This document shows positions 571 through 12,800 of a stretch of DNA of 64,000 nucleotides, piece by piece. How positions within the stretch are numbered: position 1 is the first letter of the stretch; the number at the start of each line of letters is the position of its first letter. Under the pieces are notes generated by a model that made no database searches, was not told where the DNA came from, and was given only the letters and a program-made list of their open reading frames with translations. Position numbers and translations under genes: made by a program. Origin of the DNA: an uncultured Verrucomicrobiae bacterium (GTDB taxonomy: Bacteria > Verrucomicrobiota > Verrucomicrobiia > Limisphaerales > JAFGQR01); the NCBI GenBank assembly GCA_963788655.1, contig CAWBHS010000089.1:1-64000 (forward strand). Reading direction: 5' to 3'.

Positions 571-2099
571 AAGAGCAGGAGGCCCTGCGTCGTCAACGGC
601 AGCGGACCGAGCAGGCCCTGGCCGCCGCGCAGCAGGCCCTGCAGCAACGCGACGAGCAGTTGCGGCAGACCCGCCAGGAACTGGAGGCGCACCAGCGGAA
701 GCTGGCGGAGGCCCAGGCGATCATCGCCGATCTGAAGCAACAGCTCTTTGGTTCGAAAGCCGAGAAACTCAAACGCCGAGCAGGAAGCGCAACTGCACAA
801 GCTGGCCAACGACCTCCAAGCGCAGGCCCAGGGTCCGGAGCCGCTGAGCCAGGAGGTGGTGGAGGCGGAGCAGAAGCAGGAGCGGGACGAACAGCGGCAG
901 CGCAAAAAGAACCGCCGGAAGCGCCGCCATCTGCCGCCGGTCCAACTGGAAAAGCGAACCGAGGTTTTGGAGCCCCAGGACAAGTTCTGCCCCACCACCG
1001 GCCAACCCCGACCGCGCATCGGCCAGGAGGTCACCACCGAATATGAATTCGAGCCGGCCAAGTTGATCATCAAAGAAACCGTCCGGCCCAAATACGGCGA
1101 GTGCGGGAAGGACTGCTGCTCGGGCGTGACCGTGGCGCCCCTGCCGCCGCGCTTGCTGCCGCAAAGCAAGCTCGGGCTGGGCCTGGCGGTGTTTCTGTTG
1201 CTCAGTCGCTTTGACGACCACATCGCCTACTACACGTTGGAACGGAATTTTCGGGAGCGATTGGGCGTGGTGATCTCGCGCCAGCAAATGGTGCAGTGGG
1301 TCGAAAAGATCGCGCATTTGCTCCTGGCGATTTACTGGGCGATCTGGGAGGAACTCAAGTCGGGGAACTACCTGCAAGTCGACGAGACGCCCGTCAAAGT
1401 GCTCGATCCGGAAGTGCGCGGCAAAGCGGCCACCGGCTATCTTTGGTTTTACTCAGCGCCGCAGGGGGACGTGCGCTTGGAGTTCTGCGGCGGCCGGGGG
1501 CGGGATGGACCCGCCGCCCGGCTCGAGGGATTTGAGGGCACCATCCAAAGCGACGGCTACACCGTCTACGAGTCGCTGCGGCGAGGGAGTGGCGGGCGCC
1601 TGAAACGCATCGGTTGCCTGGGACATGCGCGGCGCCGTTTCTACAAAGCGCTCCAGGAATCACTCCAAGACGGGCTCTGGTTTATCCTGAAGATTCGGGA
1701 GCTCTATCGCATTGAAGACTCCCTGCGAGAGGCCTCGTTTGAGGAACGGCGCCGCGTCCGCTTGGCTCGCACGCCGGCCATCTGGCGAGAGATGAAGCAC
1801 CGCGCCGAACAGTTGCGCAAAGATCCACGGGTATTGCCGGCCAGCACGCTGGGCAAGGCGGCCCGTTACTTCCTCAAGGAGTATACCGCGATGGTCGGAT
1901 ATCTGCGCGACGGGCGGTTCGAAATGGATAACAATCTCGTCGAAAACGACGTGAGGCCTTCGGCGCTCGGCCGCCGCCGGTGGCTATTCATTGGGCATCC
2001 GGACGCCGGTTGGCGCAGTGCGGTCATTTACACCATCATCCAGAGCTGCCGGCGGCGAGACATCAATCCCCAGGAGTACCTGACCGACGGGCTGCGGCG
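567..2099 (+). pseudogene. tnpC: IS66 transposase TnpC, interrupted at 2099 by the inner IS; apparent +1 indel near 770
   Basis: Coiled-coil N-terminus ending LFGSKAEK, then zinc finger, LQVDETP, SDGY, CLGHARRRF, DNNLVENDVR. Confidence 0.9.
1899..2099 (+). repeat. 201-bp direct repeat, copy 1 (copy 2 at 5602-5802)
   Basis: ATATCTGCGCGACGGG...GGGCTGCGGCG present twice with offset 3703; one mismatch seen (GCGCTCGG vs GCGGTCGG). Confidence 0.95.
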
Positions 2100-2202
2100 T
2101 GTTGCTTCGGCAAGCATGCGGGGGCCGTAAAAACCTCCCGGCGAGCCCTCAGCGCGGCATCCGGCCGCCGGGCGGCCCTATCGCGATCTCACGCAGGCTG
2201 CC

Positions 2203-3798
2203 TCAGCCGGTATCGGGGGGAGACAGCGCCTGCTCGTAATTCCAGGGGAGCCACCGGGTCGGATGCTCCAGCGCTTCTTTGGCGTGGCGTTGGAGGGCGT
2301 TGAGATAATCCAGTGGATTGGCGGCGCATAGTCGGCAGGTGTGGATCAAGCTCATGAACCTATCGCCCAATCGGGCGCCGTTCTGAGTCTTGTAGCCCAT
2401 CGAGTTTTTCCGGTGGAGAATGGCCATTTTGAGCGCGCGTTCGCAGATATTGTTATCCAGGGGCGCCCCGGCTTGGCGCAGGAATAGGGTCAAAGGCTCC
2501 CAGTGTCTGAGCATGTAGCCGAACGCCTGACCCAGTCCGGAGTTAGGTTCCACCAATTTCTGCTCCAACCGTTGGCGCATCCACTGATGGAGTTCGTCCA
2601 TGATTTTCTGACTGTGCTCCTGGTGGAACCGAAGCCGGGCCTCGGGCGAGAGCCCGGCTTTCTTGGCCTGCGCCTCGTGTTGGTAAACCTCGCCCAGACG
2701 TTCCAACACGTGCTGGCATTCCTGCGGGAAGTTTTGGGCGAGGTCGACAAACTGCCGTCGGCCATGGCTCAAACAGTGGGCGAGGAGGCTCTGGAACTCC
2801 TTGGAGGGGTTGCGCGAGAGCGCGTCGCACATCTGGATGGGGGGTGAGGAGTGGGCGGCGCGGCGAGCGAGCAACTGGTCCAGGTTTTCGCCGGCGTGAC
2901 GATGTCCGGTCACAAACAGCGCGATCGTGTGGTCCGCGACCTGGGAGATGAGGCCGGTGGTGAAGATCCCGGTGCGCTCTGGCCTCTCAGCGGCCGGGTC
3001 AGCATCCCGGGTCAGGCTTTGCACCCGCAGGGTGGTGTCGTCGTTGTGGATCACCTTGCCTTGAGCGGCCAGCGTGATCAAAGCCTCATGCACCGGTTCG
3101 AGCGCTTGGCCGGCTTGGGCCATGAGTTCCCATTGCGTCGAGGCCGGCAGACGCACGCCCAGGTCGGCCTGCATTCGGTCCAACCGGTAGTGGGGCACGC
3201 CCGTGCCAAAGCGCAAATACCCCAGCATGGAGCCGACCTGCGGATCATATTTGCTCAGCCCCGCTTCCTTGGGGGCCGGGGCGGTGAAGAGCTGGCCGCA
3301 GAGGCTGCAGCGTAGCTTCTCCAGTTCGAACCGGGTCGCGGCAAACAACGGTTGGGCGGTAATGCGCACCAGTTGTCCGAGCTGTTTGAGCGCGGAGAGT
3401 TTGCCTTTTTTGCAGCCGGGACAAGCATCGCCCGGGCGGAGTTGCGGAGGGGGCACCCGCACCCGTTTAGCTCCGGGGTAGCCTGCCGCGGCCGTGCGGC
3501 CGTGGCCGTGGCGCTTGGGCCGAGGTGCGGCTGCCGTTGCGGGGGGGTGGGAACTGGCAGGCGGCGGCGGAAAGAGTTGCTGGGTCTTTTCGGTTTCCGC
3601 ACCGAAGATCAGTCGCTGGAGCCGGCTCAGGCTGGTCTGCTTGGCCTCGATGACTCCCATGACCCAGTGGAGGGTGCGCAAGGACTTCGCGACCAACTGG
3701 TACATCTCCGCCGGCAACAGCCCCGCCAACTTGGCCAGCAACTCTTCCAGTTGCGTGGGGCTCAGCGTGATGATCTCCGGAGCACGGTTCTTAGCCAC
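2203..3798 (-). CDS. tnpC: IS66 transposase TnpC (intact)
   Basis: IFGAETEK, CPGC/CSLCG zinc finger, IHNDDT, CLSHGRRQF, LDNNICERALK, LPWNY. Confidence 0.92.
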   Translation of the reverse strand: MAKNRAPEIITLSPTQLEELLAKLAGLLPAEMYQLVAKSLRTLHWVMGVIEAKQTSLSRLQRLIFGAETEKTQQLFPPPPASSHPPATAAAPRPKRHGHGRTAAAGYPGAKRVRVPPPQLRPGDACPGCKKGKLSALKQLGQLVRITAQPLFAATRFELEKLRCSLCGQLFTAPAPKEAGLSKYDPQVGSMLGYLRFGTGVPHYRLDRMQADLGVRLPASTQWELMAQAGQALEPVHEALITLAAQGKVIHNDDTTLRVQSLTRDADPAAERPERTGIFTTGLISQVADHTIALFVTGHRHAGENLDQLLARRAAHSSPPIQMCDALSRNPSKEFQSLLAHCLSHGRRQFVDLAQNFPQECQHVLERLGEVYQHEAQAKKAGLSPEARLRFHQEHSQKIMDELHQWMRQRLEQKLVEPNSGLGQAFGYMLRHWEPLTLFLRQAGAPLDNNICERALKMAILHRKNSMGYKTQNGARLGDRFMSLIHTCRLCAANPLDYLNALQRHAKEALEHPTRWLPWNYEQALSPPDTG

Positions 3799-4678
3799 AG
3801 CCCGCTCCGCAAAGTTGGCGGCGAAAGTCCGGCCGCAGCGGATAAGCCCACAACTGCTTGAGCGAGCGATTGGGCCGCTTGGTCTGATCGTCTTTGCCCC
3901 GCCCGGTGGTCAACCCCAGATAGAGCCAGTGGGCGGCCCGATAGCAGGTGCCGGCGAAGCGTTCCGGGTCGATAAACGTCTCCAGCAAGTAAACCGGATG
4001 CTCATAGAGCGCTTGCCAGTCGGCGGCAATCCGCCCCGCCAGCCGGGCCAATACATGGCTGGCCAAGCAGGGCACCTTCACCCAGGGCAGGATGAGAAAG
4101 CGGGTATTGTAGGCCAACAGGTGAATCTGGGCTCGGCGTTGCGGGGCCGACCAACCGATGAAGCGGTCGCGCGCTCCCAGATGACGGGGAGCCGAAGACC
4201 AGGCCAAAGCAGCCACGGGTTGTCCCTGGGCGTAAATCAGGTATTTCAGATGCTCGCCGACCGGCCGGGTATAACCTAAGTAATGGTGGGCCTCCAGGAG
4301 GCTGCCGAAGAGTTTTTCGGCCGCCGTGCGTCGCACCTGGCGGATCTCCAACGCCCCCAACTGCGCCAAAGAACACGCCAACGGTGCGCTCACCCGCTCC
4401 GCTGGGCGCGTGGGGGCTCGGTGCTGCGTGGCATTGTTGGGTGGGCAAAACCGCTGCGCCGGCAGTCGAATGTGACCCGCTCGGTGCAACCCCAGCATCA
4501 GGCTCCGGGCGACCATGTCGCGCGGACGGCCGTTGGGCTGCCTCCAGTTCCAGGCCGCACAGAGCTCGGCCGAGAGCCGCCGCCGACTTAAACCGGGATG
4601 AGCGGCGATCAACTGCCGGATAAATTCAATTTCCTGGGCGCTAACCTTGCGGCCCCGGTAAACAAACTCGTTCTGCAC
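3791..4678 (-). CDS. DUF4338 / DruA-like protein with N-terminal winged-helix-like region
   Basis: HHYLGY..VGEHLKY, RDRFIGW, YNTRFLI, LLETFID..RFAGTCYRAAHW..G.TTGRG; stop overlaps the tnpC GTG. Confidence 0.88.
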   Translation of the reverse strand: MQNEFVYRGRKVSAQEIEFIRQLIAAHPGLSRRRLSAELCAAWNWRQPNGRPRDMVARSLMLGLHRAGHIRLPAQRFCPPNNATQHRAPTRPAERVSAPLACSLAQLGALEIRQVRRTAAEKLFGSLLEAHHYLGYTRPVGEHLKYLIYAQGQPVAALAWSSAPRHLGARDRFIGWSAPQRRAQIHLLAYNTRFLILPWVKVPCLASHVLARLAGRIAADWQALYEHPVYLLETFIDPERFAGTCYRAAHWLYLGLTTGRGKDDQTKRPNRSLKQLWAYPLRPDFRRQLCGAGCG

Positions 4679-4756
4679 GAGCGCCAGTTTAGGCGATCAA
4701 ACATGGAACGCAAGCCCAAGGGTGATGTTTTTTTCGCTCCAGCCCGGGGCGCTCAC

Positions 4757-5119
4757 TTAAGCTGCCGGGGCAATCGGCCGCCACCTCGGAGCGGCTTGGG
4801 CGTGGTTGGGGTGGCCGTTCCAGATCAGTAACTGGAGTTGATGCACCTCCAAACCCAAGGTGGGCTGCTGGCCCCCGCTGGGCCACCAGGCGAAGCGTCC
4901 CTGCGAAAGCCGTTTCTGGCAGAGCCAAAAACCTTGGCCGTCATACACGAGGATCTTCAGGGCGCGACGACGACGGTTGGAGAACACGAAGAGCGCGCCG
5001 GCCATCGGGTCCAGGTTAAGCCTCTGCCGGCAAACCTGCACCAGCCCGTCAATGCCTTTGCGAAAATCTACCGGCTCCACCGCCAGCAACAAGCGCATCT
5101 GCGGCGTGAGCTGAATCAT
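4757..5119 (-). CDS. tnpB: IS66 accessory protein TnpB (Orf2)
   Basis: PVDFRKGIDGL, LFVFSNRRR..LKILVYDGQGFWLCQKRL..GRF.WW. Confidence 0.95.
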   Translation of the reverse strand: MIQLTPQMRLLLAVEPVDFRKGIDGLVQVCRQRLNLDPMAGALFVFSNRRRRALKILVYDGQGFWLCQKRLSQGRFAWWPSGGQQPTLGLEVHQLQLLIWNGHPNHAQAAPRWRPIAPAA

Positions 5120-5535
5120 GCACGCTGCCTCCAGAGCCCTTGGGCCAAGGCCAGAGCGGCGGCGCTGTCAGTTTGCGCCAGCCGCAGGGTCAGTTTCGCA
5201 CCCTGGCGATCCTCCAGTTCCATGACCCACTGCGAGTTAGGGCAGGCCGTCATCGGCACCTCGACAAACTCCGCAGCGATCGCGTCAGAACGAGGAGCTT
5301 GCGCAGCCGCAGTGGCCACCAGCCGGTGCTTGAGGGCGGTGTAATTGACCCTCAGAACCTGGGCGACCCGGCTCAGTCCATAACGTCGCGCCAACCTCAC
5401 CATCGCTCGCCAGAGTGGTTCCGGGATTGGTTCCCGATGTTTACGCCTCTGGCGCCAAGCGGTCAGGGCTGGTTGAACCCGCTCAATCGCGGCGGCAAAT
5501 GTGGGATCCGATTTGGTGGTCGTCTTCGCTGTCAT
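5116..5535 (-). CDS. tnpA: IS66 Orf1 / TnpA-like helix-turn-helix protein
   Basis: IPEPLWRAMVRLA HTH-like segment and FVEV motif; ATGA overlap with tnpB. Confidence 0.75.
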   Translation of the reverse strand: MTAKTTTKSDPTFAAAIERVQPALTAWRQRRKHREPIPEPLWRAMVRLARRYGLSRVAQVLRVNYTALKHRLVATAAAQAPRSDAIAAEFVEVPMTACPNSQWVMELEDRQGAKLTLRLAQTDSAAALALAQGLWRQRA

Positions 5536-5601
5536 AATCTGGCGCGAAGACTACCGCGGCGGCCGAAACGCCGTCACACACACTTGCCGAAGCAACACGA
5601 T

Positions 5602-5884
5602 ATATCTGCGCGACGGGCGGTTCGAAATGGATAACAATCTCGTCGAAAACGACGTGAGGCCTTCGGCGGTCGGCCGCCGCCGGTGGCTATTCATTGGGCA
5701 TCCGGACGCCGGTTGGCGCAGTGCGGTCATTTACACCATCATCCAGAGCTGCCGGCGGCGAGACATCAATCCCCAGGAGTACCTGACCGACGGGCTGCGG
5801 CGCCTGCCCTCAATGAATGCGGCCGAGGTGAAGGAGTTAACGCCCAGCCGTTGGAAGCCCGTCCAGCCGGCAGCCACCCCATAG
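5602..5884 (+). pseudogene. tnpC: C-terminal part of outer TnpC (includes direct repeat copy 2, 5602-5802)
   Basis: YLRDGRFEMDNNLVEND...INPQEYL...ELTPSRWK; completes the interrupted gene. Confidence 0.9.
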
Positions 5885-6344
5885 CTTGGTGCTCGGCAGT
5901 TCATAGCCCCCGCTGCGCGATCCGTTCGCACCGGCCGGGCTGCCCCTTGGCCACCGTGCGCCGCCACCGCCTAGTGCCCCCCACGCACCTCCGTTAACGC
6001 TTACGATTGTTGGAAGCAGAGCATTGAAGCGGATGCTCGCATTGGGCCGGGATTGACTGAGAACCGTATGCCTGGCAGGAATCATTCGACATAGCCGGAT
6101 TGGTCGCAGCCATAGCCGAAAGCGAACCGGGCGTGCTGAGTTGAAACAGACTCGCGAAACCACGTTCTTGTGTTGACCGGGACAGCGCCACGAGGCGGGC
6201 AAGGCGTTTGGCTGTTCAGTGAGAGGTAGGCGAGCTTTGCTCCATTTCGAGGAGCATTCGTAGCCGAGAAGCTGTTCCGGCGTTTATTCTCTTGGCACGT
6301 CCCCCGCCTTGGTTGGCTCGTGCGGTTCTTCTCAAAGCCTGTTG

Positions 6345-6812: not shown

Positions 6813-9800
6813 CTGGCGCTCCGAACGTGTATTTGTATTGCCGTCTATTTTTCCAGATCAAACCATATTCGAACACGGCTCTCACGTAACCTCCTACGCC
6901 AAACTTATCCGTGCCCTGCCCAAAATCGTAAGAATAACTTGCATAAGCACCACCTTCGGCAAAAGCATTTACCACCAGTACATTTAGGCCGACTCTCAGC
7001 CCGATCCATCCTGTTCCTCCAATAGAGCCTGTCCACGTTTCTTTCTCAGTGGGCCAGCAGTACTCATAATCTGCTGTTCCTGTTATTGTTACCCCTCCAG
7101 CTATTGAAACTAACGTTGGGCCTTTTGCTGCAATTGCAAATGTTGGTCCGCCTTTTACTTTAACACAGCAACCGTCGGAACTAACTTTGAGCACCCCACC
7201 GTATCTAGTTCTAAAAATGCCAATGTTAATTCCAGGCCGCCTAGTATCATAGGTAAAACTCACTCGATGTTTAGCATGTTTTTTGAAATCTGTATAGAAA
7301 CTCTTTATAGGTACTAATACCATCATCAAAAACACCCTGTATCGGCTCTAAGTAACCCACGAAAGTGCTAACAAATGAATACCCACTGTTCCGTTCATTA
7401 TTGTTTGGAAGTATCGAGCTGGATCCTTCAACAGGAACACTTCCCAATATATCAATAAATAGAAGAGGATCGTTGGCTGTATGACGATACAAGTTGCTCC
7501 CACCAAATTCTCCGAGCAGATCCAAGCTGAGCCAACGCCCCATACCTGGTCGATATTCCCGGAAGAGGTACTTCAAGTCCCCAGTGACCTCATCCGCATA
7601 TTGAGCGCTGAAGCGCATCGGATTCTCTTCCGCCATCGGCCCCGTGGCCCGCAGTTCATTGCCGAACGGATCGTATTCGTAAAGCGCCGACACCTCCCCG
7701 TCATCCACATCCACCAACGCCATCACGTTCCCGTTGCCGTCGTGGCAATAGAAGTGCGTGCCGTTGGTCGCGGTCTTGATCGCCAGCAACCCGCCAACGC
7801 CACCCGCTCCTTGCAGCGTCCCGCTCAAGTCCAAGCCGCGGAGGAACCCGGCCACCAACCCGTTGGTGTGATCGAGAATCGGCCAACAACACTTGTCCGT
7901 CCCACACAAACCGGTTGGTCGCACGATGGCGCGTATGCGCTGCCGTTCCAAGTCGATACTACCCGTTCCATCCACCGGCCATCGGGCAGGTAAGTCCAAG
8001 TCTCGCGTTTCTTGCCTTCGGTTGGAACTCCATTGGCACTCTCGATTGCCACCAGCCGATTCTCCGCATTCCAGGTGTTGGTCCACAGGCTGTCGCCCGT
8101 CAGGTTGCCATCCGCGTCGTAGTACAGGTTCTCCACCGCCTGGGCCACGAGCGCGTTGCCCGTGTTCGTGGCGATCACGTCCACGTTGTTCGAACTGGTG
8201 CCCTGGAGCACGCCCAGCGTCTCGATGCTCGCCCACACCGGGCCGCTCGCGTTGTCCACCGGCACTTCCACCCGGAAGTAGTCCCCGTAGCGTTCGCTGG
8301 GACTCAGGTTGGCCGTCACCGTCGCGGTGTTGGTCGCCGTGCCCAGGATGTCCACGTAGCCCGGCACCGTGCGCTCGGTGTATTGGTTCAGGTTATTGGC
8401 CGAATACTCGGCCTCACGCCCGTTGCGCTCGGTCGTGGTCCGGTTGCCGATGTCGTCAAAGCCATACTCGAACTGCTGGCCCGCCACGGCCGTCCCGTCG
8501 CTCCAATACTTCTTGCCGGAGGTCACCTGTCCGAGATTATCGTAGGTGTAAATCCAGAAGCTGCCGTCGGCGTTGGTCACGCTGGTGCGCTGGTTGGCGG
8601 CGTTCAGGGCGTAGCTGAACGAACTCAGCGTGGCCGGTTGCGTGTCGAGGCTCTCAATCTTCGTCAACCGGTTCAGGTAATCATAGCTCTTCGTCGTGGT
8701 CATGACCCGCGTGCTGCCGTTTGTGAAGTAAACCTGCTCCACCAGCGGCGAGTTGGCAAGATAAGAATACCCGGCGCTGACCGTCCCGTCCGACACCACC
8801 CGCAGCCGGGAAGCCGCGTCGTAGCTGAAGGATTGGCTGAGGGTTGAGGGTTGCGCGTTGAGGGTCAAACCGCTGCGGCGGTGCCAGCCGTCGTAACTGT
8901 TGGTCACGCCCAGGCCGTCCAGCGGCCCGCCCGTGTAGGATTCGCTGAGCAGGTCCCCGACGTCGTTGTACACGCGGGTGATCGTCGTGTCCCCCTGCAC
9001 AATGCTCACCGGCCGGCCCTGGCGGTCGGGCACGTAGGTAATGGGCGAGGTGCTGTCCGAGTACGCCACGTTGGTCAGTGTGCCGCCGGTGTCATACGTG
9101 TAGGTGGTGGTCAAGTCATCGCGCGCCCAGGTGCGTGTGGCCAACCGCCCGCCCGCGGTGTAGGTGTAGCTGGGGCCCTGGCCATCGGCATATTCCTTGT
9201 GCTGCAAAAAGCCCCGGTAAGCGTCGTATTCCCAGGTGGTGGTGGCGGCCCCGCTGCTTCCGGCGTAATCTTTCCAGGTCGTCATGTTGGTCATCCGGCC
9301 CTGGTGGTCGTAGGCGTATTCGACCGGGAACTGGCGGCGGCCCCAGGTCCGTTGCAACAGGCCGTTGGGGTAGTAGAGGTTTTCAACCACCCCGCCGTCG
9401 GGCAGCACTTGTTTCCAGAGGCGGTTGACCCCGGCCACGTTGGTGTAGAGGAAGGAAGTGACCTGCGCGCTTTGGCCGGTGCCCGGCACCGGCGAGATGT
9501 TGGTGACCACCAGGCCGGCGTCGTTATAGAGCAGGGTGGTGTTGCCGTTACGGGCGTCGGCGATGGTGGTTTGGCGTCCCTGGGCGTCGTAGCCGTAGGT
9601 GGTGGCCCCAAGCTGGTTGTCGTCGGCATCGTACTGGGTCACCAACTGGACCAGTCCGTGCAGGTAGTAACTGATGGTGTAGGAGCCGTCAAAGGTGGTG
9701 TTGGTGACGTAGCGGTGGCCGTCACCGGCGTAGGCGGTCCAGGTCCGGTTGGTGCGACCAAAGCTGCTGGTCCAGGAATACAGGCCATTGGGGACTGTCT

Positions 9801-12800
9801 CATGCACCGACGTCAGCACTGAGGTGCCATTGGTGACATAGGGGTAAATGTAGGTTTCGGTGTGATCGACACGGGCAGCCCAGGCCAATGGGGAATCGTA
9901 GTACATACCAGCCGAGTGTATCGTTGATACGGTCCGGAAGCAAGCCCCACCAATGGTTTCGTCATGGTCCACATCCAAGGCGTCAATCGTGCCAAACGGT
10001 CCAAAACTCCTCCTGATGAAGCGTCACTTGGCCGTCGGGCTCCAATTCTTTCCACTTAAACCCATATTGTCATAAAATGACTGGCGGAACGGGTAAGGAG
10101 TGGTCGCCGCCGCATAAACTGTCTTATACTGGCGCCCAGCCATGTCTGTGTAGGTTTTGATCCACTCACTGGCCGCTCCATTGATTTCCTTGACGTACGC
10201 AGAGGTAATGTTGGTCCCAGCCCCGTTGGTGCCGGCCAATTCGATGCCGTAATCGTAGGACACGGGAACGCCGCCGTGCCGGCCACCTCGGCAGAGGCCC
10301 CGTCCTGGCAAAATACCGCTCCAACCGTGTGCTTTGATCCGGATAGGTGCGTTGCCGCACGCGGTAGCCGTTGGCATCGACATAGTTCGTGAAGGTCGTG
10401 GTGTTGCCAAGGGCGTCGGTACTGCTGATCCGTTGCCCGGCGTCATCGTAGGTAGACACTGCTGAGGGTGATCGCCGAGTCATCCGAGCCATAGCGGACC
10501 GTCGCCAGCACGCGCCCCGCGGCGTCCAAAGCGTTACTGGTGGTGGTCCCGTTGGCCGTGGTGGTGGTCAGGCGCTTGAGCGGATCGTAGCCGTACGTCG
10601 TCACAGTGCCCTCCCGGTTAGTGAATACGGTCAGCCCACAACACCCGTAGGCGCTTTGCGTAAAGGTGCCGTCCAGGTAATCCGTCCGCCGGGCGCGATG
10701 GTCCGCATCAAAGTCACTGTAGACTTCATGGCGGTTGGTCACGTAGCCCGTTGCCAGCCACCAATCGATGACCGTCGCGGTCGTTCACGAGTTCCCCGTG
10801 GGACCCGTTACCATGATATTGGTCTTACGCCTATTCGATGGTCATATAATCAAGCGGATTCCAGGACACAACAATATTGGTCATTGTAGCCATTACTCGT
10901 CCATAGAGTAATAAACATCCTGCACATCTCAATGTAATGCGGTTGTAGTCCCCTTGGCTCTTTGCAAGCTGCCCCATAAAGTCCCCGCTGCTGTAATATT
11001 TGTAGGTCGTGACCAGATTGTCCTCATCATTCCAGGCCGCCCCCGCCGTCTGACACTGGATTTCCCGCCGCTCCCACGGTTTGACCACCGTGTAGCGCCG
11101 CGAAACCTCTTCGCCCAACAGGTATTCCACGGTCCGCCGGGGCGTCAGCGGTTGCAGGTCACCTTCGTCCCCGGAGCCGGACACGACATCATTGGTGTAC
11201 GTGTTTTCCACCAACCGGCACAGACTGGCGTTGGTGGTCGGCTCCTGGTTCTTAAAGCCGGAAAAGACTTGGAGCGGTCGCTGCTGCGCATCATACACAT
11301 ACCATTCCCAGGAACCGTCGGCGCGCACGACTTTCTTGCAGGGTCCCATCGTCGTAATACGCGTAGGTGTTGGTCTGCGCCGCGGTCCCGCTCCCCGTCA
11401 CTTCGGCCACCAACCCCTCGCCCCAGTCGAAGGTTTCATACTGCTGCACCCCCACCTGCACCGGGTCGTCCTCCCCTTCCCACACGGTCTTGGTCACCGT
11501 CCGGGTGTCGTTGGTGGTCGCGGTCGTGGCCCGTTCGTGGCGCATCCCGTCGCCCTGCGTCAACTGCCAGGCCCCGTCCACATACTCAAAATCATACACC
11601 GTCGAGTCCCCGTCGTGGGACGCGGTGATGCGCACCTGGTTGGTTTCCCCGGCGCTCCCGGGATTGGACACGGTGTTGGTGGCAAAGGCATTGCCGGTGG
11701 TCTGGTAGAGCCCGTTGGAGAAGCCGGTGACCTCGCTCGCCCGGTAATACACCACCCGATACTGGTTGGTCGAGTCCACCAGCACGTCGGCCAGCAGGTC
11801 GCGGAGTATAGACCTGCCGCAGGCCCTGCCCGTCGGTAATTCGCGTCGTTGCTTTCCAATCGTACGGATACTGCAAGGTGGCCGGGGTGTAGAGCGCATA
11901 ACTGGGACCGGTTTCGTTGATCACCAAGGCGCCCGCGCCCACGCCGCCGGCAAGCTGGCCCATGCCCATCCGCACCTTGAGGTTGCCGGTTTGTTCCACA
12001 ATCGAAGGGGTCACCGCAGCCGGGGCACACGAGCCGCTGCCCCCGCCGCAGGAGTCGCACCAGGCCACGACCAGATTGGTCTCGACCATGCAACCATTGG
12101 TGCCCACCGCTCGAATCAGGATCGCCCCTTCGTTGGTACCCGCGGTGATCAGGGCATTCGTTTCGTCACCAATAACCCAATTGGTCAGCGTACAGCCCAG
12201 CGTATTGGTTGATGCAATCGACCAGACCGCCTCGGGCACAGCACTCGGGTTCGACAGCGATGCCAAGGTGGTCGATTGTCCGTCCGGCGGCAGGGGGTAT
12301 TGACTGAAGTCGATGCTCGAGGCGACAACCGAACGCAGTTGCACGGTCCAACTGCCCGGCTCGCCACTTTCGATATATGTTGTCTTAATGCCGTTAATGC
12401 GTAGTTCATAACAGGAGCTGTTGGTAAGCGTGAAAGTGATTTGCAGATCATGAAAGCAGTCGCATTCCGAGTCCGCTATCAACGTGTAGGTCTGATTGAC
12501 GGTTAAGTCTACGTTGCCGGCATCGCTCTGCACCAGATCGTAACAATCGGTGTTATCAGGATCGCTCCCAGAAATTGTGACGCTATTCAAGGTGACAGAA
12601 AAATTAGTGGTACCAGCCCTAGCCGAAAAACTGACCGTATCGGCCGCCAGTCGGCTGGCGCAACAGAGTAGCCCGATCAGCAAACACAGCAGTCCGCAAG
12701 TTCGCCGGCCAAGCAAGTGGGCCACTAACGACGGGTAATTGCCGGAAGGAGGTTGCATAAGCGATTTGCTGGCGAGGCTGAAAGGCTCGGTTCGAGTAGT

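Follow-up and report, generated by a model that had tools for sequence, protein, structure and literature searches.

A 201-base repeat around a nested IS66-type element most likely marks two nearby insertions joined through the inner element

In this report, we focus on two nested insertion sequences (ISs) at the start of a 64,000-nucleotide stretch of DNA from an uncultured Verrucomicrobiae bacterium (the window, corresponding to contig C89:1-64000 of the draft genome), where an IS66-type element (the inner IS) interrupts the transposase gene of another IS66-family element (the outer IS) and is bordered on both sides by a copy of the same 201 bases of that gene. This repeat most likely marks two ordinary insertions at nearby sites that were joined through the inner IS, either in the cell or by the assembler. 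In the version that we favor, the two insertions would have occurred in different copies of the outer IS and been joined across the inner IS by recombination in the cell, a course to which we assign slightly less than an even chance. Two insertions and a cellular join are what we infer from a repeat, IS ends, junction sequences, alleles, and a flank exchange at a second inner copy that are all directly observed.

Repeat search and alignment within the window revealed that positions 1899-2099 recur at 5602-5802 with 200 of 201 bases identical, the sole mismatch being C at 1966 versus G at 5669, which falls on the first codon position in the frame of the open reading frame (ORF) at 748-2130 and changes CTC (Leu) to GTC (Val). 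This agrees with the first-pass annotation of the sequence, which had described the same repeat with a single Leu/Val substitution. A perfect 17-nt inverted repeat (2098-2114 and 5583-5599) adjoins both repeat copies; 16 nt of it lie within the ends of the inner element, and the seventeenth is a flanking base. The termini GTGTTGC...GCAACAC are exact in eight relatives that carry a target-site duplication (TSD; 8 bp in seven, 9 bp in one), and because these relatives end in this way, we place the inner element at 2099-5598 (3500 bp). Base 2099 therefore belongs to the IS and lies outside the repeat, which abuts the terminal inverted repeats (TIRs).

The right junction is also crossed by short-read contigs from two public soil-metagenome runs of one study (X1 and X2, depth 2-5), identified among the Logan contigs of four runs compared, of which the best contains 35% of the sampled words; the runs X3 and X7 yielded only relatives of the inner IS with 95-99% identity. 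In the X1 and X2 contigs, the two bases AT at 5600-5601 are missing, so the GAT/AT junction that had been read at 5599-5601 is present in the letters of the window and shortened in the short-read data. The extra AT is either a variant or a consensus error; its site (GATATC) may be prone to consensus errors, or strains may differ there. Once these two bases are removed, the right flank reads GATATCTG, identical to outer-IS bases 1898-1905, and the duplicated target is thus outer-IS 1898-2098, again 201 bp. Its left copy, with C at 1966, then occupies 1898-2098, and its right copy, with G at 5669 and the extra AT, occupies 5599-5801. The G at 5669 is real, since an X2 contig matches the right-copy haplotype (5602-5845) with zero differences. 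The left junction (2098|2099) is covered by none of the contigs compared and is taken from the assembly, as is the pairing of the two junctions on one molecule, since no contig spans the element. The flanks of the inner IS in the window, GCTGCGGC on the left and GATATCTG on the right, do not form an 8-bp TSD; the inner IS thus lies exactly between two direct copies of host sequence without a short TSD, a duplication-IS-duplication (Dup-IS-Dup) layout.

The outer IS is present in four further copies, on contigs C62, C25, C102, and C86, each at a contig end; all are uninterrupted over the repeat region, where the 201 bases are single-copy. At position 1966, allele C is shared by the left repeat copy and the outer copies on C62, C25, and C102, whereas allele G is shared by the right repeat copy and the copy on C86, which differs from the others by 16 mismatches and seven scattered gaps of 1-2 bases. 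At a site where the copies are polymorphic, a difference between halves derived from two separate outer copies is to be expected, whereas a fresh duplication starts out identical.

Only two copies of the inner IS were found in the genome, the other lying at C76:208900-212403 with one mismatch in 3504 positions (99.97% identity). Its flanks, GATGCAAC and GATGTGCT, are unrelated to each other and contain no TSD. The right flank encodes just the C-terminal ~80 residues of a GH123_N-type protein (894-968 of the 969 profile positions), and the left flank consists of an epimerase gene on the opposite strand together with a hairpin. The remainder of the GH123_N-type gene is located on contig C96 (C96:34670-37670), whose final 284 bases match the C76 right flank at 100% identity and cross the uninterrupted target (...GCGCG GATGTGCT GGCTACC), so that the filled and empty states are both present in the assembly. 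Because the gene body belonging to the C76 right flank and the empty site both lie on C96, an exchange of flanks at the inner element, biological or computational, is demonstrated in this genome. Re-pairing the four flanks of the two inner copies, in direct and reverse-complement orientation with 8-mers compared by eye, revealed no TSD, and a search of relatives for the empty counterpart of the C76 site gave no usable match to either flank in the same-genus genome G001 or in genome G004.

Several side observations concern the left flank of the C76 copy. Its last nine bases before the element (208890-208899; AGATGCAAC) equal terminus bases 2-10 of a 1,251-bp IS with at least six copies, which was recovered through an 8-mer search of contig ends (C95, C78, C22, and C67); this is suggestive only, and the left junction of C76 may lie inside another IS as well. 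Moreover, positions 207670-207830 and 208846-208894 are short sequences with counterparts on dozens of contigs (72-100% identity), one of ~150 nt and the other a ~40-nt hairpin (CTGCCGGCG..CGCCGGCAG), reminiscent of repetitive extragenic palindrome (REP) or miniature inverted-repeat transposable element (MITE) families.

To place these two copies in the context of their group, the terminal 16-mer was scanned in public genomes, giving at least 80 loci, and five contiguous genomes containing it were then scanned, from which 16 complete relatives were taken. Seven of the 16 are flanked by a perfect 8-bp TSD and one (L349) by 9 bp, at unrelated targets, in accordance with the ~8-bp duplications that the first-pass annotation had ascribed to IS66; the other eight have no TSD. 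No long flank duplication was found in any of the 16, the longest common flank word being at most 11 nt except in L348, where one displaced 45-nt repeat lies next to a normal TSD, nor in the eight evaluable complete copies from metagenome contigs. None of these eight copies in short-read contigs has matching flanks or a TSD, which is most simply explained by mis-paired flanks where such contigs run through a multi-copy element. The first of the two options raised initially, that the element regularly inserts with a long stagger, is thus not borne out. The absence of an 8-bp TSD concerns the two copies studied here and not the element group. That first reading had also looked to other genomic copies for their flanking duplications and targets: C76, the sole such copy, offers mismatched flanks and no 8-bp TSD, and ordinary duplications at unrelated targets are found instead among the relatives. 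Furthermore, in genome G043, the right flank of L352 (contig C2) and the left flank of L356 (contig C36) are reverse complements over 16 of 16 bases. Such an inverted common flank is what an inversion leaves behind, whether it took place between two IS copies or was made by them. Because of this pair and the eight relatives without a TSD, flank exchange is regarded as common for this element.

The relatives also bear on target choice. For 32 single ends judged genuine among the matches listed, C precedes the left end in 15 of 17 cases and G follows the right end in 11 of 15; the window agrees at both junctions (C at 2098 and G at 5599). No homology to an IS66 transposase was detected by tblastn in 32 single-end flanks (among the matches listed) or in 32 flanks of complete copies, and none of 77 metagenome loci contained outer-IS DNA. 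The IS-into-IS target preference that had initially been proposed therefore finds no support in the relatives (0/64 flanks), and the frequent nesting in this genome fits the retention of insertions at harmless places better than a specific preference of this kind. Among 40 genomes of the same order, close relatives of the inner IS occurred only as fragments with at most 82% identity, with no complete copy.

Further cases of nesting were observed in the outer IS itself. An IS of ~1.45 kb (ends CAATGCC...GGCATTG) occupies an identical site in the right end of two outer copies (C102:2505-3958 and C86:18565-21116), with a ~10-bp duplication (CGCCTAGTGC), and on C86 it is itself interrupted by a 1.09-kb insertion resembling C37:41040-42130, producing three nested layers. 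A separate observation concerns a metagenome contig of 3,892 bp (L251), in which an IS right end is followed by 1,455 bp that code for a P-loop protein (at least 407 aa) and then by an IS left end; this arrangement represents either a small segment enclosed by two IS copies or a cyclic path of the assembly graph, and a duplication-IS-duplication structure would give such a cycle too.

In the favored course of events, one inner IS would have inserted into outer-IS bases 2091-2098 (GCTGCGGC) of a copy with allele C ("C-type"), and another, in the same orientation, into bases 1898-1905 (GATATCTG) of a copy with allele G ("G-type"). Homologous recombination inside the identical inner ISs would then have linked the left part of the first insertion with the right part of the second, leaving the 201 bases between the two sites on both sides of the element because halves of two insertions had been joined. 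In support of this course, both junctions look transposase-made, with C before the left end and G after the right end. IS-IS recombination and adjacent deletions are documented as frequent causes of missing TSDs (PMC11708052). The allele difference between the repeat copies, the exchanged flanks of C76, and the many relatives without a TSD tip the balance toward two insertions joined in this way.

Several points weigh against it. Two insertions in the same orientation only 193 bp apart are needed, an event that we put at no more than a few percent even if the outer IS is taken as the target of both, and the relatives show no attraction to IS66 targets in any of their 64 flanks. The parental or reciprocal junctions, with outer-IS sequence ending in ...GATATCTG (...GGATATCTG) running into the IS left end, or with GCTGCGGCGCC directly after the IS right end, were found neither in the assembly with its two inner copies nor in the short-read contigs, whose depth of 2-5 is too shallow to tell. 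In addition, position 1966 of the left copy, with its C, is part of a collapsed multi-copy stretch, close to the start of the contig and common to four other contigs, and this base could reflect reads from other outer copies. The second of the initial options, recombination between inner copies that had inserted ~200 bp apart, fits better than the first in view of the C/G alleles and the exchanged C76 flanks; the junctions that it predicts were not found, and a path of the assembler through the 3.5-kb repeat would look the same.

Alternatively, the same two insertions may have been joined by the assembler, the two junctions coming from different insertion alleles (in different outer copies or strains) and being threaded through a collapsed 3.5-kb repeat, in which case no single DNA molecule carries the duplication-IS-duplication structure. 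We consider this unlikely, while ranking it next after recombination in the cell. The quality of the assembly speaks in its favor: the draft genome comprises 115 contigs and 8.96 Mb, with 86% completeness and 5.6% contamination, compared with 5.3 Mb for a same-genus genome. In 143 matches with 97-100% identity, the end of one contig falls inside another (for example, C96:1-3000 against C57:356773-359778 at 98.9%), which suggests the presence of several strains, and the mismatch and gap pattern of the outer copy on C86 is typical of noisy long reads. The assembly thus looks like a noisy long-read product of more than one strain, and the bin is probably a mixture of close strains. The two inner copies, each no more than about 6.3 kb from the end of a contig, have mismatched flanks, all five outer copies are at contig ends, and the two junction bases of the window are missing from the short reads. 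The metagenome copies, none of the eight with matching flanks, further indicate that contigs passing through such a repeat often mis-pair its flanks. On the other side, an assembly join requires the same improbable coincidence of two close insertions, long-read assemblers normally need spanning reads to pass through a repeat of 3.5 kb, and no contig in the bin carries the proper partner junctions.

A third explanation dispenses with the coincidence of two insertions. A single insertion of the inner IS could have duplicated 201 bp, and not 8 bp, in a one-off adjacent duplication, and three routes can be envisaged: the two IS ends might attack the target strands at a spacing of 201 nt; an IS already residing at 2091-2098 might attack 1898-1905 on the sister chromosome with its right end, mirroring an adjacent deletion; or the IS might enter the junction of a nascent tandem duplication. 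Both junction bases match the target preference of the element under this explanation as well, and C76 could represent the adjacent deletion that goes with it. We know of no established transposition pathway for IS66. The explanation must be reconciled with the lack of a long flank duplication in all 16 complete relatives and all eight evaluable metagenome copies, and with the fact that the two repeat copies differ at a position where both alleles pre-exist, so that later gene conversion or a consensus artifact would be needed. We regard a single-step event as rather improbable, and less likely than either of the two preceding explanations, and give the same low standing to its fullest form, in which an IS66-type transposase made a one-step adjacent duplication of 201 bp here together with a matching adjacent deletion at C76.

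The closest precedent for a single step is an IS481 element of Pseudomonas fluorescens SBW25, for which Ngan et al. (mBio 2024, PMC11708052) describe a new copy between duplicates of 59,943 bp without a TSD. The duplication arose under laboratory observation and was confirmed by polymerase chain reaction (PCR) and Sanger sequencing, and the authors call it "not readily explained". The layout is the one found here, with an IS exactly between direct copies of a host segment and no short TSD, and in IS481 it has been shown experimentally; the present case differs in that the repeat is 201 bp long, lies within another IS, is known from a draft assembly only, and has copies that differ at one base. 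The same source reports IS copies without TSDs, produced by IS-IS recombination or adjacent deletion, in long-term evolution lines of Escherichia coli. These share with our copies the mismatched flanks on an intact IS, a pattern that C76 fits exactly, whereas the E. coli cases, as described there, are deletions or hybrids of distant loci, and a 201-bp duplication needs close insertions in homologous copies. A literature search for "long target site duplication" of ISs returned nothing beyond PMC11708052 and its preprint.

Two systems outside the ISs also provide points of comparison. In maize, sister-chromatid ("alternative") transposition of Ac/Ds generates tandem direct duplications with the element at the junction; similarly, it predicts a duplication-element-duplication structure and a reciprocal deletion from one event, but Ac/Ds is a eukaryotic cut-and-paste element, and nothing comparable has been shown for IS66. 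Restriction-modification genes of Helicobacter and Neisseria are reportedly subject to "insertion with long target duplication", with long direct repeats around the inserted DNA of a sequence that the empty site has only once; unlike the inner IS, they are not DDE insertion sequences.

It is highly improbable that the 201-bp repeat belongs to the inner element, for instance as the att-site copy of a site-specific element targeting the gene: although the repeats adjoin the element on both sides, this att-like origin was rejected in view of the 99.97% identical C76 copy, which has neither repeat copy at its ends, and the relatives end in GTGTTGC/GCAACAC with 8-bp TSDs and no recombinase is encoded besides the DDE transposase. 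The remaining probability falls to other causes. A hairpin or cruciform uniting the two insertion sites was also considered and rejected, as the repeat ends share a direct 8-mer (CGACGGGC) that is not inverted and lies at different offsets.

The inner element (2099-5598, minus strand) carries perfect 16-nt TIRs (GTGTTGCTTCGGCAAG; 2099-2114 and 5583-5598) and four genes on the same strand. The first, in the position of an IS66 tnpA, is an ORF of 139 aa (5116-5535; from the ORF list) with no match in Pfam or NCBIfam, and it overlaps by 4 nt the tnpB gene (4757-5119), which encodes an IS66 Orf2-like protein of 120 aa (PF05717, E 9e-30; NF033819, 98.3 bits against a cut-off of 50). It is followed by a DruA/DUF4338-like gene (3791-4678; 295 aa; PF14236, E 6.8e-30), whose end overlaps by 8 nt the start of tnpC (2203-3798), encoding an IS66 DDE transposase of 531 aa (PF03050, E 1.9e-50; NF033517, 232.8 bits against a cut-off of 180). 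The inner element thus has the IS66 features of a DDE TnpC, a TnpB encoded upstream of tnpC, and terminal inverted repeats.

The outer IS lies on the plus strand and is cut by the contig start, which truncates the 5′ part of its DruA/DUF4338-like gene (1-570; PF14236, E 4e-28); the full-length form, in the uninterrupted copy on C62 (L004:167-1123), has 318 aa. The 5′ part of its tnpC, an IS66-family transposase gene, spans 567-2098 (PF03050, E 1.5e-63, with weak zf-IS66 and IS66_C matches), and the remainder of the element occupies 5802-6004, comprising the end of tnpC (stop at 5884; PF13817, E 2.6e-9, in ORF 5501-5884) and the right terminus (...ACGCTTAC) at 6004; the other outer copies cease to match the window at 6004-6006. 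The outer tnpC changes frame near 770 (567-1046 and 748-2130) at ...GAGAAACTCAAACGCCGAG..., a sequence common to the near-identical copies on C62, C25, and C102, which reflects either a common frameshift mutation, programmed frameshifting, or a systematic consensus error. Directly to the right of the outer IS, genes for Rhs-repeat proteins are found on the minus strand (7271-9978; PF05593, E 6.5e-16), and 280 bases to the right of its end recur at 76-90% identity on C93, C4, and C48.

Members of the IS66 family are typically organized as tnpA-tnpB-tnpC over about 2.5-2.7 kb and generate 8-bp TSDs. Both elements resemble this family in encoding TnpB_IS66 and DDE_Tnp_IS66 proteins above curated cut-offs and in having terminal inverted repeats, and the end of the outer element (...GCTTAC) resembles the canonical IS66 terminus. 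They differ from it in the extra DruA/DUF4338-like gene between tnpB and tnpC; in addition, the inner element ends in GTGTTGC, its TnpC lacks a zf-IS66 match, and neither of its copies in the genome has a TSD. The two elements are only distantly related to each other, with 39% identity between the DruA-like proteins and 23% between the TnpC proteins. DruA-like genes (PF14236, E 1e-28 to 1e-32) were located at 1-570 and 3791-4678 in the window and at L346:2200-3309, L202:6194-7081, and L353:1429-3900 in relatives, and in L353 the DruA-like domain and the IS66 DDE domain are united in a single ORF of 823 aa. The DruA model of PADLOC barely matches these proteins, with E 0.0085 for one of the two elements and no match for the other. 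A literature search, with ISfinder and the non-open IS66 family review outside its reach, identified no paper joining IS66 with DUF4338; one paper mentions IS66 and DruA a single time each, without DUF4338. An IS66 type with a DruA/DUF4338-like gene may be undescribed in print.

The duplication either adds one more case to the known kinds of IS-associated rearrangement or is an artifact. If it arose by recombination or by an assembly join, its significance is routine, with the practical message that, in draft genomes from metagenomes, the two flanks seen around a multi-copy element cannot simply be trusted as a pair. If a one-step origin were true, it would provide a small, natural, base-level example of the IS-centered Dup-IS-Dup events whose mechanism is open, and would suggest that IS66 elements, a poorly understood family, use a replicative chemistry involving sister copies.

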